8,042 bases of DNA from a virus. Below are positions 2,962-8,042 of this stretch, one piece after another. The stretch lies in the UHGV virus genome UHGV-0209291; one strand, given 5' to 3'. The position numbers and the translations under genes were made by a program. Position 1 is the first letter of the stretch. The number at the start of each line of letters is the position of its first letter. The notes below the pieces were generated by a model. The model saw nothing but the letters and a program-made list of their open reading frames with translations, was not told where the DNA came from and did no database searches.

Positions 2962-3303
2962 ATGGAAAATTATGTATCTAAACTTTTTAGAATAATGGAA
3001 GAAAAAGGAATAACAGCTTATCAAATAAGCAAAGGAACAGGAATAGGTCAAACAACATTATCAAGTTGGAAAACCGGAACCAAACCAGCAATGGATAAAT
3101 TTGTGTTAGTACTACAATATATTGGCATATCATCAGATGAATTATTTGGCCTAAGAGAACCAGAATACACCCCCAAAGAAAAAGAAATCATATCCAAATA
3201 CAGGAAATATGATGTACATCAAAAAGAATTATTAGAAGCTTATATGGACTTACTCGGAGGAGAAAAGCATCATGACACGGAAGATGCAAGATTATACGGT
3301 TAA
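2962..3303 (+). CDS. XRE-family (Cro/C1-type) helix-turn-helix transcriptional regulator, 113 aa; candidate phage repressor/immunity regulator.
   Basis: Classic HTH_XRE signature ITAYQISKGTGIGQTTLSSWKTGTKP. GGAG SD 7 nt upstream. AT-rich codon usage unlike the backbone. Confidence 0.85.
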   Translation: MENYVSKLFRIMEEKGITAYQISKGTGIGQTTLSSWKTGTKPAMDKFVLVLQYIGISSDELFGLREPEYTPKEKEIISKYRKYDVHQKELLEAYMDLLGGEKHHDTEDARLYG

Positions 3304-3354
3304 ACGACTACATCAATACTAAAAATAAATAGTCAACCCAAACGAGGAAAATGT

Positions 3355-3981
3355 ATGTATCAGACCTATATAACACTAATACTAATTATAATTCTACTTT
3401 ACATTATCATTAAACTAATCAAAGAAAAAAATAAAGACAATGACACAAACATAAGAAGAATTGAAGAACTAAAAGAAAAAGAACTAACAAAAGAAGATAA
3501 CAACATCAATAAAAATCAATATAAAAAGAAATATTTTCTAACAAACACAGAAAAACAATTTTTATCAATATTATACGAACTAAAAAAATATAATTTAATT
3601 ATTATACCCCAAATAAATTTAGCTACAATTATACAAAAAACAGGAGAATTTCGGTATCAAAATGAATTATATCGAAATATTGATTTCGGAATATTCGATA
3701 AAAATTATAATATTCTACTTTTAATTGAATTAAATGATATATCACATCAACAATACAAACGGCGAGAAAGAGACATGAAAGTAAAAGAAATCGTCAAACA
3801 AGCCGACATAAAACTTATCAATTTTTATACAGACAAACCTAATAAACCAGAATACGTAATAAAAAGAATCATGAATGAACTTGCGATATCTATACCGAAT
3901 TACGAAATAAATCAAATTGAACAAGATAAAAAAGACGAACAACCATCCATAACTCACCAGAATGAACAAGAATCGATTTAA
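3355..3981 (+). CDS. Membrane-anchored protein (208 aa) with a DUF2726 / Vsr-DUF559-like (PD-(D/E)xK restriction-endonuclease-like fold) domain.
   Basis: N-terminal TM (ITLILIIILLYIIIKLI). Domain signature NIDFGIFDKNYNILLLIELNDISHQQYKRRERDMKVKEIVKQADIKLINF matches the hhDFhhhD...hhhhE(L/V)D(D/G)xSH...R..RD...L...GI.hhR(F) pattern of the DUF2726/DUF559 families. GAGGA SD at 6-nt spacing. About 25% GC. Confidence 0.7.
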   Translation: MYQTYITLILIIILLYIIIKLIKEKNKDNDTNIRRIEELKEKELTKEDNNINKNQYKKKYFLTNTEKQFLSILYELKKYNLIIIPQINLATIIQKTGEFRYQNELYRNIDFGIFDKNYNILLLIELNDISHQQYKRRERDMKVKEIVKQADIKLINFYTDKPNKPEYVIKRIMNELAISIPNYEINQIEQDKKDEQPSITHQNEQESI

Positions 3982-4008
3982 GGGAATTTTAAGGAGGATA
4001 TAACCTAA

Positions 4009-4254
4009 ATGAATGAAAATGAAATGCTAGAAGCCATCAGAGGAATGCTACAAGAAGAACTTAAACCAATCCATGATAGCATAGAAACTCTAAAAGTACA
4101 AAACAAGGCTATAAAAAACAAATTAGAAGAAATAGACATAAGACTAACCAACCTAGAATACCAGACAAAGAAGGGAACCAAAGAAACCAGACAAGACATA
4201 GAAACATTAGTAGAAGTCCTAGAAGCAAAAGGCATATTACCAAAAGCACTATAA
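4009..4254 (+). CDS. Small coiled-coil protein (81 aa), function unknown.
   Basis: Perfect SD AAGGAGGA 8 nt upstream. Heptad-like, charged sequence (LEAIRGMLQEELKPIHDSIETLKVQNKAIKNKLEEIDIRLTNLEYQ). Immediately followed by a terminator hairpin. Confidence 0.75.
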   Translation: MNENEMLEAIRGMLQEELKPIHDSIETLKVQNKAIKNKLEEIDIRLTNLEYQTKKGTKETRQDIETLVEVLEAKGILPKAL

Positions 4255-4261
4255 CAGCAAA

Positions 4262-4290
4262 ATCCCCGGCTCTATGCCGGGGATATCTTT
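4262..4290. terminator. Bidirectional rho-independent terminator: 9-bp GC-rich stem ATCCCCGGC / GCCGGGGAT with 5-nt loop TCTAT. Followed by ATCTTTATCT on the plus strand and TTTTGCTGTT on the minus strand.
   Basis: Read directly. It ends the plus-strand cassette (stop at 4254) and likely also the minus-strand rep transcript. Confidence 0.6.
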
Positions 4291-4296
4291 ATCTAT

Positions 4297-4359
4297 GTAA
4301 CACATTTTCACCTGCAGGTGATTTCTGGCCTGGCCGGAGCCGGCATGACCATGTGTTAC
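4297..4359. repeat. Compound inverted repeat: outer 9-bp stem GTAACACAT (4297-4305) / ATGTGTTAC (4351-4359) enclosing the perfect 12-bp palindrome CACCTGCAGGTG (4309-4320) and GGCCGG-AG-CCGGC (4332-4344). Candidate packaging signal or single-strand origin of the intergenic region.
   Basis: Read directly. It sits immediately downstream of the rep operon, where inovirus intergenic regions carry packaging/origin hairpins. Confidence 0.45.
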
Positions 4360-4538
4360 TAATCATCATCAATTACCCCACGCTTGACGGCATCAGCCAG
4401 GCCAATTGATACTAACCGGGTAGCCAGTTCCGCAGGAGTGGCATAACATTCACAGTATTCCATGTAACGGCAGAGTTGGTTATACTGCTTCTTTGTAAGG
4501 TATGTACTAACTTTGATTTTTCCAATCGGCTTATTCAT
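4359..4538 (-). CDS. Hypothetical 59-aa Cys-rich protein (MNKPIGKIKVSTYLTKKQYNQLCRYMEYCECYATPAELATRLVSIGLADAVKRGVIDDD), below the ORF-track cutoff.
   Basis: ATG at 4538 overlaps the rep stop (ATGAATAA). AAGGGAAA lies upstream. A C-x5-C-x1-C pattern hints at metal binding. The stop overlaps the right arm of the compound inverted repeat. Weak support. Confidence 0.35.
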   Translation of the reverse strand: MNKPIGKIKVSTYLTKKQYNQLCRYMEYCECYATPAELATRLVSIGLADAVKRGVIDDD

Positions 4539-5547
4539 AAAAGTTTCCCTTCTGATATCTTAATAACTGATTCCGTAACTTGTTAAATATGGAACCCTCA
4601 ACTTCAAAGGGACGTTCCAGGAGCAGCGCCTTGTATCTACGTTTCGTAGGAGCCGACATCTGCCGGAGATAATAGTCCATCTTGTCAACAGGTTGTTCCG
4701 CAAGCAACTGCACAATAACCTTTGTCTCTGCAAGGTCAATCACTTTACGAGTATAGACATTGGGCCAACATCTACAGCAATCACTGTAATCCAGGCTGTC
4801 CAACGTGACCTCAATCCGAGTAAGTGGATAATCAAGTTCTGCCTCAATCTGTTTATTATATACCTTGACACGGCCTGGACTGGACATAGAACCTAAGTAT
4901 TCAGTAAAATCCTGGGCTGATTTATAAAACTGGCTGTATTTCCGGTTATCCTTGATAAGCTGCACACAATCACGACCGTACGGCACATCAACCGCCAAAT
5001 CCCATCTCTTGATTTTTATAGATTCCACACTTACAAAAAGCTGGTCCAATACTTCTCCCAGAATGTCGCCTATCTGGTCCCGTAAATCACGGAAGGAGAT
5101 TTCCTCCTGGGTAAAAGGGGATATTGTGGTACGAAGAAAGCCATCACCATAAGCAACTTCACCCAGCAGCTTATTAGGGTTGAAATCCAGGAAACCCCGT
5201 AAGACAGTTTCTTTCTTTACACCATTCATACAACAGCCAATACTGAATGACATCCCTTTCATCCCAAACACATATAAATACCGATAGTCAAAATCCTTGT
5301 AAGATGTATAGGACGTGGAGCCAGGCAGGTGGGAGAGGAGAGAAAGAAAGGATTCCACTGTATCAATATTGGGAAACTCGAAGGAGTAACGGAGGGAATC
5401 ACAGGAGTAGAAAACACCATCCTCAATGAGTGGATTGAAGTAGTAAAGCATGGGCAGGACCTCCAAAAAGATTGTTAAGTAACTATACAAAGTGAAAGAA
5501 TTTTTCAGGACTTCGGACCTAATTAGACGGAGGTCCGAAGTCATCAT
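4531..5547 (-). CDS. Rolling-circle replication initiator, Rep_trans (pT181 RepC/RepD-like) family, 338 aa.
   Basis: Motifs RWDLAVDV and VKVYNKQIE (candidate catalytic Tyr) resemble Rep_trans conserved blocks as I recall them. GAGGA SD 9 nt upstream of the ATG ATG start. Its position next to the Zot-like gene and structured intergenic region fits an inovirus gII equivalent. Confidence 0.7.
   Translation of the reverse strand: MMTSDLRLIRSEVLKNSFTLYSYLTIFLEVLPMLYYFNPLIEDGVFYSCDSLRYSFEFPNIDTVESFLSLLSHLPGSTSYTSYKDFDYRYLYVFGMKGMSFSIGCCMNGVKKETVLRGFLDFNPNKLLGEVAYGDGFLRTTISPFTQEEISFRDLRDQIGDILGEVLDQLFVSVESIKIKRWDLAVDVPYGRDCVQLIKDNRKYSQFYKSAQDFTEYLGSMSSPGRVKVYNKQIEAELDYPLTRIEVTLDSLDYSDCCRCWPNVYTRKVIDLAETKVIVQLLAEQPVDKMDYYLRQMSAPTKRRYKALLLERPFEVEGSIFNKLRNQLLRYQKGNFYE
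5508..5542. promoter_or_regulatory. Perfect 12-bp hairpin GACTTCGGACCT / AGGTCCGAAGTC with 10-nt loop (plus strand AATTAGACGG, gene-sense strand CCGTCTAATT) at the Zot-stop/Rep-start junction. Candidate double-strand origin or translational-coupling element.
   Basis: Read directly. The hairpin covers Rep codons 3-13, and the Zot stop codon (5519-5521) lies in the stem. The loop on the gene-sense (viral) strand contains TCTAAT, reminiscent of the pT181-family nick site ...ACTCT/AATAG..., which lies inside the 5' end of repC. Confidence 0.4.
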
Positions 5548-6283
5548 CCGTTTTATCCTCTATCGCTTCAACTACGGGCCCGCCACAGGCGGGGGCCCTT
5601 CGTTTCCGCTTGATGAATGGTGTGTATGTAAATTGACCTTCTGGAAGATAGGGAGGGTCAAACGAATTAAAGTATTTTATATACTTTGGCAGATAAGTAA
5701 TACGGATGGAGCCGGCCCAGAACAGAAGCAGACTCTCAAAATGTATATCATCCACAAGTTTAGATTCACCAGCCTGGTTAGAATCTGCATGGGTAATCGT
5801 GGGAGACTTGGCAATACCCCTGGCAACTGAAAATGCATTAAAGACATTAGTCGCTAAATACATACGGTCCGTAAGGTCCCTAAGTTTCTTATCAACATCA
5901 AAACTCTGGGAAAATAGATAAACCGTATGACGGTATTTCCGTTGGAAACGGAAATAGTCAAAGGTCTTTTTCTGGAAATTCTTAAAATCACGGTTATCCC
6001 AATACCTGGAAGCCTCGTCAACCATAATGATTGCGTTTTCAGGAAAACCGACAGAACCCAACATTTCAGGCTCAAAGTAATATGTACCAGGAATGTCAGG
6101 AGCATTGCAGAACACAGGCCGTTTCCGCTTGTTATACTTCAAAGACAGTTTGACCATTAACGTGGTTTTACCAGAGCCCTTTTTACCTATGACCATGATT
6201 AATTTATAGGGATTGCGATAGCGGATTAAATGGTACCCAATGAAAAGAATAAGAAACAGGATAATCAAAACGAAAAACACCAT
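5519..6283 (-). CDS. Zot / filamentous-phage pI-like P-loop NTPase (assembly ATPase), 254 aa from the preferred start; N-terminal TM anchor.
   Basis: Walker A VIGKKGSGKTT. Walker B plus downstream IIMVDEASRYWDNR (compare V. cholerae Zot FLFIDECGRIWPPR). A YFRFQRKYRHTVYLFSQ block. AGGAGGA SD 8 nt upstream of ATG 6283. The ORF-track start 6331 lacks an SD. N-terminal TM VFFVLIILFLILFIGYHLI. Confidence 0.85.
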   Translation of the reverse strand: MVFFVLIILFLILFIGYHLIRYRNPYKLIMVIGKKGSGKTTLMVKLSLKYNKRKRPVFCNAPDIPGTYYFEPEMLGSVGFPENAIIMVDEASRYWDNRDFKNFQKKTFDYFRFQRKYRHTVYLFSQSFDVDKKLRDLTDRMYLATNVFNAFSVARGIAKSPTITHADSNQAGESKLVDDIHFESLLLFWAGSIRITYLPKYIKYFNSFDPPYLPEGQFTYTPFIKRKRRAPACGGPVVEAIEDKTDDDFGPPSN

Positions 6284-6423
6284 GAAAATATCCTCCTGAC
6301 AAAGCGGAATACACAAAGGACAACCAGACATAAAGCAATAGGCACAAAAATAGGACTATCTATATCAAAGGCCAGGAGAGGGGAGAAGAAGAAATCCCAA
6401 AAGACCGGAAGAATCCCAAACAT
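6265..6423 (-). CDS. Small membrane protein (52 aa, two hydrophobic segments) between the coat-like gene and the Zot-like gene; candidate minor virion/assembly protein.
   Basis: ATG at 6423 with GGAGGT SD at 6-nt spacing. The ORF track extends to a GTG at 6483 with no SD. Overlaps the Zot start by 19 nt. Confidence 0.45.
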   Translation of the reverse strand: MFGILPVFWDFFFSPLLAFDIDSPIFVPIALCLVVLCVFRFVRRIFSWCFSF

Positions 6424-7902: not shown

Positions 7903-8042
7903 TCATTCTCCAAACTTTACAATCACAGTACGGGCAACAATCGTAACAATAAGGATGGCAACAAGGACATTCTCCAAGGTAAAACCGCCAAGTTCCGTAT
8001 ATTGAAGAAGCCCAATCATGCCACCGAATACATCAATAACAA
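7903..8042 (-). CDS. 3' end of an ORF entering from the right edge (...VIDVFGGMIGLLQYTELGGFTLENVLVAILIVTIVARTVIVKFGE*); C-terminal TM segment, partial.
   Basis: Open frame to the window edge. Its stop TGA (7903-7905) lies 1 nt from the next ATG (7901), which suggests operon coupling. No start is visible. Confidence 0.35.
   Translation of the reverse strand, partial: VIDVFGGMIGLLQYTELGGFTLENVLVAILIVTIVARTVIVKFGE

Follow-up and report, generated by a model that had tools for sequence, protein, structure and literature searches.

A predicted pT181-type double-strand origin between zot and rep in an inovirus-like phage of gut Clostridia

The virus genome UHGV-0209291, a stretch of 8,042 nucleotides referred to throughout as the window, carries a perfect hairpin between the gene for a Zot-like assembly ATPase (zot) and the gene for a replication initiator of the Rep_trans family (rep). 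Judged from sequence comparison, this hairpin is very likely the nick site of the plus-strand, or double-strand, origin (dso) of an 8-kb circular inovirus-like phage of gut Clostridia and Lachnospiraceae. The analysis established the hairpin itself, the family to which Rep belongs and the motifs it bears, the identity between loop motif and published nick site, the covariation of the stems, the fixed position of a second inverted repeat and the strand on which the motif lies; the case for an origin is built on these together with the specificity of a covariance model and the co-inheritance of hairpin and rep as a cassette. An initial annotation of the window had proposed a candidate pT181-type dso lying inside rep, and of that proposal the nick site in the loop is now strongly supported by comparative data, but the placement inside rep is not. 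The origin belongs to an already known type, its differences from the pT181 plasmids being a position upstream of rep, a longer stem and a phage context. The main genes of the window lie on the minus strand, and the features on which the argument turns are as follows.

5509-5542, minus strand: predicted nick hairpin of the dso, the analogue of pT181 IR-II and pC221 ICRII, with 5' arm 5542-5531, loop 5530-5521 and 3' arm 5520-5509; from the perfect repeat, the fold z score, covariance model R1 and the covarying stems of relatives.
5523-5526, minus strand: CT'AA nick motif; from the invariant CTAA in alignments A2 and A3, the pT181 loop and the published nick site.
5493-5507, no strand assigned: second inverted repeat, TGAAA-AATTC-TTTCA in the minus-strand reading, a candidate Rep-binding site; from the fold, the relatives and the position of ICRIII.
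4531-5451, minus strand: rep, a Rep_trans (pT181 RepC/RepD-like) initiator of 306 aa; from homologues, profile, AlphaFold model with Foldseek, and motifs.
5460-5464, minus strand: GGAGG ribosome-binding site, 8 nt upstream of the rep ATG (5451-5449); read from the sequence.
5519-6331, minus strand: gene for the Zot-like assembly ATPase; Pfam Zot 1.3e-6, phrog_25712 5.4e-26, Zot-like phrog_197 3.3e-10.

The hairpin, its loop and its initiator

The stem comprises 12 base pairs that are 100% complementary, with arms at 5509-5520 (GACTTCGGACCT) and 5531-5542 (AGGTCCGAAGTC), and the whole hairpin reads GACTTCGGACCT-CCGTCTAATT-AGGTCCGAAGTC on the gene-sense (minus) strand. The perfect 12-bp stem is therefore as first described, but the TCTAAT that had been given as the loop is only part of a 10-nt loop at 5521-5530, and the range given for the whole, 5508-5547, takes in 1 and 5 flanking bases besides the hairpin. 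Folded as single-stranded DNA (ssDNA), the hairpin has an energy of -14.7 kcal/mol, whereas 200 dinucleotide shuffles give -5.97 +/- 1.87 (z = -4.67), none of them folding as well. Of 60 simulations of the window with a first-order Markov model, one produced a perfect stem of at least 12 bp (loop 3-20), and perfect stems of at least 10 bp, expected at 0.08, number three in the window itself. On the strength of the fold score and the simulations, the hairpin is a real feature and beyond chance.

What does the loop say about its role? In Rep_trans origins, as in the origins of transfer (oriT) of the MOBT relaxases, there is a conserved nick, CT'AA, in the loop of a GC-rich hairpin (PMC9371924), and in pT181 the nick lies in the loop of IR-II (PMC5062986). 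The pT181 sequence (NC_001393, locus L029), which was taken from PLSDB as a separate comparator, has an IR-II that reads CTACTCTAATAG with CTCTAATAG in its loop, and on the repC-sense strand, inside repC, contains AAAACCGGCTACTCTAATAGCCGGTTGGACGCACATACTGTGTGC within the fuller stretch AAAACCGGCTACTCTAATAGCCGGTTGGACGCACATACTGTGTGCATATCTG; the pT181 nick sequence that had been given in the initial annotation is thus present in the record. The comparison with this origin that had been suggested there, now carried out, reveals the same TCTAAT core in both loops, that of the window being CCGTCT'AATT. The window accordingly has CT'AA in a hairpin loop on the rep-sense (leading) strand, as a pT181-type origin does, and this strand encodes rep, zot and the other morphogenesis genes, the motif being likewise on the rep-sense strand in pT181. 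The bond predicted to be cleaved is that between T5525 and A5524 of the minus strand, and the nicked minus strand is expected to be the packaged viral plus strand. A literature search with the origin sequence string gave no match.

The protein encoded downstream fits such a target, although its family is detectable only through a profile of 32 sequences, phmmer against the PDB with the single Rep sequence giving no match. The 32-homologue profile matches the structures of RepDE and RepDN (PDB 4CWC/4CWE) with E = 1.7e-6, in an alignment that takes in FNPNK, RxDlAxD, TxYxG, RvYNKxxE, xRxE and the C-terminal tKxKYkxLL. The AlphaFold (AF2) model of Rep (pLDDT 87.6, pTM 0.85) has RepDE and RepDN as its best Foldseek matches in the PDB, at about 3e-10 to 5e-10, followed by RepSTK1 at about 3e-8, and it ends in four helices (245-300) resembling the DNA-binding domain of RepD. 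Invariant among the 32 homologues are D18, R149/D151, T183-E-Y185-L-G187, Y198-N-K200..E203 and L-T-R212-I-E214, which fit all five published Rep_trans motifs, namely N'(D), RxD, T/SxYxG, YxKxxE and W/LxRxE (PMC5714925). On the grounds of the profile match, the family members that are Pfam-positive, the AlphaFold/Foldseek match and the invariant motifs, sequence and model together place Rep in the pT181 family of Rep_trans proteins, with Tyr185, in TEYLG, as the predicted catalytic residue.

Downstream of the hairpin lies the second inverted repeat, 5493-5507, which forms a small hairpin of its own in the ssDNA fold and is centred +25 nt from the predicted nick. In the pT181 family the repeat that is bound specifically by Rep, ICRIII, has its centre 23 bp downstream of the nick (PMC4797284). 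For most unique relatives, the best inverted repeat on the downstream side has its centre about 23.5-25.5 nt from the predicted nick, with the offsets re-derived by hand where CTAG precedes CTAA in the loop, since the scripted values of +27.5 to +29.5 were an artefact of about 4-5 nt. Arms of at least 6 nt are found in 48% of loci as against 5.7% of shuffles. The sequence of the repeat is lineage-specific (CGTGTAA-TT-TTACACG, ATGACGAT/ATCGTCAT, TGCAGA-AA-TCTGCA and GGTCAAA/TTTGACC, for instance), and compensatory variants occur in close relatives, GTAAA..TTTAC in L052 and AGCA..TGCT in L010. There is, then, an element-specific repeat directly downstream of the hairpin and centred at close to the 23 bp of ICRIII; it matches ICRIII in both position and behaviour, and would by inference be bound by Rep.

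By analogy with pT181 and pC221, these components suggest how the origin would operate. In the supercoiled replicative form the inverted repeat would extrude as a cruciform, exposing CCGTCT'AATT in a single-stranded loop, and a dimeric 306-aa Rep would dock on the adjacent repeat at 5493-5507, probably by way of its C-terminal helical domain. Rep would then cleave the gene-sense strand at T5525/A5524, with Tyr185 becoming linked to the 5' A, and from the 3'-OH the host polymerase, together with a PcrA/UvrD-type helicase, would synthesise DNA through rep in the direction of decreasing coordinates. Once a round is complete, the hairpin so regenerated would be cut and religated to release a circular plus-strand ssDNA, which would go either to packaging or to complementary-strand synthesis.

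Conservation of the hairpin among relatives

For comparison, 121 related loci were gathered from public assemblies, IMG/VR, GTDB genomes and metagenomes. In relatives with 79-100% Rep identity the hairpin is nearly unchanged despite an unrelated adjoining zot 3' end, and in those with 24-50% Rep identity it stands at the same place with wholly different stems. Across lineages the stems include GACTTCGGACC, TGTTTGCCCC, CATTGCCCC, AACCCGGC, TTAAGACCGC, CAACTTTTACCGC, CGGCCCC, ACATCGTCC and others, while the loop is constant as ..(G/A)TCTAA(T/C)... Of 46 non-redundant loci, 33 have on the rep strand, between -300 and +60 relative to the rep start, a perfect CTAA-loop hairpin of at least 7 bp, and such a hairpin accompanies 34 of the 71 CTAA sites in this zone as against 21 of 1620 elsewhere (Fisher p = 8e-37).

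The MAFFT alignment of 25 hairpins (A2) is anchored on CTAA but leaves the stems out of register because of unequal loop lengths, and it was superseded by a subset of the same geometry (A3) and by a covariance-model alignment (A4). When 11 lineages are aligned without gaps, 100% of cells pair and seven of the eight pairs change on both sides. The covariance model made from this alignment, R1, has matches in 52 of 66 sources, exactly one at each locus and in every case on the strand of rep; its single strong match in the window is 5539-5512 on the minus strand with 36.2 bits, the next best having 16 bits. In the resulting alignment of 52 sequences 97.2% of cells pair, and the covariation score is 0.81 compared with 0.17 +/- 0.03 for shuffles and at most 0.21 for slid partners. 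The stems thus covary around a conserved loop, as those of a hairpin under selection do.

Several observations weigh against an origin at this place. The position of the nick is a prediction from homology, and the second repeat of the window, with arms of only 5 bp, is insignificant when taken by itself. Of the non-redundant loci, 13 of 46 are without a perfect CTAA hairpin of at least 7 bp near rep, and some lineages have CCAA, CTAG or GTAA in the loop. Since the hairpins were found by a stem search the percentage of paired cells is partly circular, a circularity that the enrichment and the slid-partner controls address. The R1 model does not retrieve the IR-II of pT181 itself at E <= 1, the loop there being 2 nt shorter, and in two loci (L039:5158-5184 and L086:4166-4192) its match falls about 240 nt downstream of rep. 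As for the initiator, the single Rep sequence has no significant match in Pfam (Rep_trans E = 0.14) or PHROGs, and only six of the 32 family members reach Pfam Rep_trans unaided (best 1.3e-4). In the lineage of L039 and L086 (36% Rep identity), the upstream position is taken by a GC-rich hairpin, GTTGCCG-TGGCTATGCC-CGGCAAC.

Position relative to zot and rep, and alternative roles

The placement of the hairpin depends upon where zot ends and rep begins. The final nine codons of zot (DDDFGPPSN) and its stop span the 5' arm and the loop, and the stop itself, a TAG at 5521-5519, sits on the boundary between loop and stem such that the 3' arm opens with the final two bases of the stop. For most relatives, L001 and L008 among them, the position of the zot stop is upstream and the hairpin is wholly intergenic, which makes the overlap, on sequence evidence, a peculiarity of the sub-lineage of the window. 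The longest rep open reading frame (ORF) runs from 5547 to 4531, encodes 338 aa and opens just outside the hairpin. However, all 31 of the aligned Rep homologues begin at ML.YY.P, which corresponds to Met33 of this ORF, and homologues (n=61) are nearly all of 301-306 aa, covering about 90% of it; moreover, an in-frame stop lies 1-23 codons upstream of the rep ATG in most relatives, and Met33 has its own GGAGG, kept as GGAGG or AGGAGG in relatives. For these reasons the start at 5547 is very probably wrong, and the true rep very probably comprises 306 aa, from the ATG at 5451-5449 to 4531. The hairpin, which ends 57 nt upstream of that ATG, therefore lies upstream of rep and not in its 5' end. 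Hence the initial annotation was right to put the Zot TAG at the hairpin, but the Rep start that it placed at the same junction holds only for the longest ORF, and the Rep residues 3-13 that it read from the hairpin are most likely never translated as Rep. The window thus departs from the pT181-family plasmids, whose origin is embedded in the 5' coding part of rep, but such embedding is a trait of that plasmid family and no mechanistic requirement.

Could the hairpin act as RNA instead? Between zot and rep it might terminate transcription intrinsically, attenuate it or stabilise mRNA as a stem-loop, and in this way determine how strongly rep is expressed from the morphogenesis transcript, and it does lie between two co-oriented genes, where it would be transcribed, with a 12-bp stem that would be stable as RNA and a position that is conserved across relatives. 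Nevertheless there is no T-run after the stem and a terminator and promoter scan of 5300-5700 found nothing, and the loop, which equals the Rep_trans nick motif, is the most conserved part while the stems vary, a pattern of a site recognised or cleaved by protein and unlike that of a terminator. A role as RNA in place of an origin is consequently improbable, although a secondary effect at the RNA level may accompany the origin.

It is quite unlikely, too, that the hairpin is some other signal of the ssDNA form, such as a signal for packaging, a minus-strand (single-strand) origin or, as in CTXphi, a Xer/integrase attachment site folded from the plus strand. Filamentous phages do have hairpins of this sort between the last morphogenesis gene and rep, many of the relatives lie inside contigs of 100-290 kb and hence integrate, and the attP of CTXphi is the stem of an ssDNA hairpin (PMC4439123). 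Against an attachment site is the finding that in integrated relatives, L046 (a 289-kb contig) among them, the hairpin has zot and rep contiguous on either side, so that the hairpin is internal to the element rather than a junction. For a packaging signal or minus-strand origin the Rep_trans nick tetranucleotide would not be expected to persist across 24-93% Rep identity, nor the hairpin to stay joined to rep as a cassette, and better candidates exist at 4297-4359 and 5576-5598.

Least credible is a coding or coupling role, in which the hairpin would sit inside rep or, as had also been suggested, couple translation of Rep to that of Zot: the Zot stop is indeed within the hairpin of the window and the 338-aa ORF does open at an ATG (5547) preceded by GAGGA, but the homologues all start at Met33, in-frame stops separate hairpin and rep ATG in most relatives, the true start with its own GGAGG is 67 nt from the Zot stop, and in most relatives that stop precedes the hairpin.

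Known systems, genome context and significance

The origin proposed here resembles the dso of pT181 and pC221 (served by RepC and RepD) in its Rep_trans initiator with the same motifs and fold, including a C-terminal helical domain (helices 245-300 in the AF2 model of the phage Rep), in a GC-containing hairpin whose loop shows TCTAAT / CT'AA on the rep-sense strand, and in an element-specific second inverted repeat about 23-25 nt downstream of the nick. It differs in that the phage origins are found in the zot-rep spacer, 57-90 nt upstream of the rep start, whereas those of the pT181 family are some 60-110 nt inside rep. The phage stem has 11-12 bp rather than the 7 of the pT181 family and the phage loop 10-12 nt, and the replicon is a filamentous phage rather than a plasmid, with a Rep only about 16-17% identical to RepDE/RepDN. 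The inactivation of Rep after one round, which in the pT181 family yields RepC*, would be counter-productive for a phage.

The MOBT relaxases (ICEBs1 NicK, ICESt3 RelSt3 and Tn916 Orf20) likewise act on an oriT with CT'AA in the loop of a GC-rich hairpin, and their catalytic domain is related to Rep_trans (PMC9371924). They possess an N-terminal helix-turn-helix that the phage Rep is without, and the phage element has no conjugation genes; furthermore, RelSt3 binds an inverted repeat 68 bp away, whereas the candidate repeat of the phage abuts the hairpin, as in plasmids. With the Ff gpII origin and the plus-strand origin, ori(+), of CTXphi RstA, the window shares a location between the last morphogenesis gene and rep, a nick in the loop of a plus-strand hairpin and a circular ssDNA product for packaging. 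Unlike the window, Ff employs an HUH endonuclease and a different nick sequence. The ori(+) of CTXphi is 167 bp, HU-dependent and nicked at G/T in the apical loop of its second hairpin (PMC4439123), in contrast to the compact, plasmid-like origin of about 50 bp in the window. Among the rolling-circle endonucleases of filamentous phages, Rep_trans is reported to be the commonest (PMC13595969).

The window appears to be a complete circular genome, as L043 (ERZ773118 NODE-2095, 99.9% identical) reads from base 8042 into base 1. Genomes of filamentous phages are small and circular and combine a Zot/pI-like assembly ATPase, small hydrophobic coat-like ORFs, a rolling-circle Rep and a small ssDNA-binding protein, and judged by its genes the window would be that of an inovirus-like phage of this kind; an 86-aa ORF at 2062-2322 has weak matches to RstB and SSB PHROGs, and one homologue is annotated as 'Inoviridae sp.'. 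A megablast of the whole window against GenBank phages gave no match. Some relatives form contigs of about 8 kb while others lie within contigs of 100-290 kb (Clostridium porci, Enterocloster lavalensis and Lachnospiraceae), the latter implying that this phage group also integrates. The remaining features of interest are these.

4359-4538, minus strand: 59-aa ORF (orf59) overlapping the rep stop, co-inherited with origin and rep as a cassette.
2962-3303, plus strand: HTH_3 repressor-like protein.
3355-3981, plus strand: DUF2726 protein with an N-terminal membrane segment.
4009-4254, plus strand: 81-aa coiled-coil ORF.

A block of homology at 4360-5547 is common to L001, L007, L046 and L055 (77-88% identity); its limit lies 5 nt outside the hairpin, and past that point the zot 3' ends of these otherwise mosaic relatives are unrelated. 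With the block bounded in this way by the predicted origin, it follows that origin, rep and orf59 act as an exchangeable cassette. In L010 (IMG/VR UViG_2654588144, 1611-1660) there is a 17-nt tandem duplication, two copies of AATTAGGTCCGAAGTCC, that starts exactly at predicted nick +1 and ends one base past the 3' arm; no duplication of this type is present in the other fetched loci. It looks like the footprint of an aberrant Rep-mediated termination or strand transfer, although it may be due to slippage. The edge of homology 5 nt from the hairpin, the unrelated zot 3' ends and the L010 duplication together raise the possibility, a rather doubtful one, that the origin hairpin also serves gut inoviruses as a recombination joint for the exchange of replication cassettes. 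Were this true, Rep_trans nicking would drive modular phage evolution, and the position of the nick could be read from the L010 duplication as from a natural footprint.

Other structures are found around the cassette. Within the coding sequence for the Zot C-terminus, about 35-40 nt upstream of the nick hairpin, a GC-rich imperfect hairpin at 5576-5598 reads GGGCCCCCGCC-TGT-GGCGGGCCC on the minus strand. In relatives the stretch 30-70 nt upstream of the nick hairpin is often occupied by another hairpin of different sequence, frequently GC-rich, and perfect stems of at least 7 bp occur there in 53% of 36 loci as against 5% of shuffles. Possible roles for the one at 5576-5598 are those of a minus-strand origin, an ICRI-like element and a packaging signal. 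On the other side of rep the region 4240-4420 has strong minus-strand structure (z = -4.84). It includes at 4262-4284 a 9-bp GC hairpin followed by TTTT, lying between convergent ORFs and resembling a bidirectional terminator, and at 4297-4359 a long composite hairpin bounded by GTAACACAT/ATGTGTTAC, which is a candidate single-strand origin or packaging signal. The latter had been named as an alternative nick site, but it does not match the nick-hairpin model, and 4240-4420 as a whole contains no CTAA-loop hairpin and no R1 match above 16 bits. Further away, the opposite-strand module at 2962-4254 (plus strand) varies between relatives and is probably a lysogeny or accessory region, and a perfect 11-bp, GC-only hairpin, TCCCCGGCCCC...GGGGCCGGGGA, occupies 2016-2049, between the SSB/RstB-like ORF and the next gene.

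No new mechanism is revealed by these findings, and the CT'AA hairpin is the canonical target of Rep_trans proteins. They do correct the start of the rep gene and provide a precise origin prediction, extending to the nick bond, the hairpin and a candidate binding repeat, for widespread and uncultured filamentous phages of human-gut Clostridia and Lachnospiraceae. The 28-nt covariance model could be used to annotate origins in other Rep_trans inoviruses, and could aid the design of shuttle or phagemid vectors for gut Firmicutes. For the biology of the family, the comparison points to a compact two-part pT181 origin design that is common to staphylococcal plasmids and inoviruses despite the low identity of their Rep proteins.

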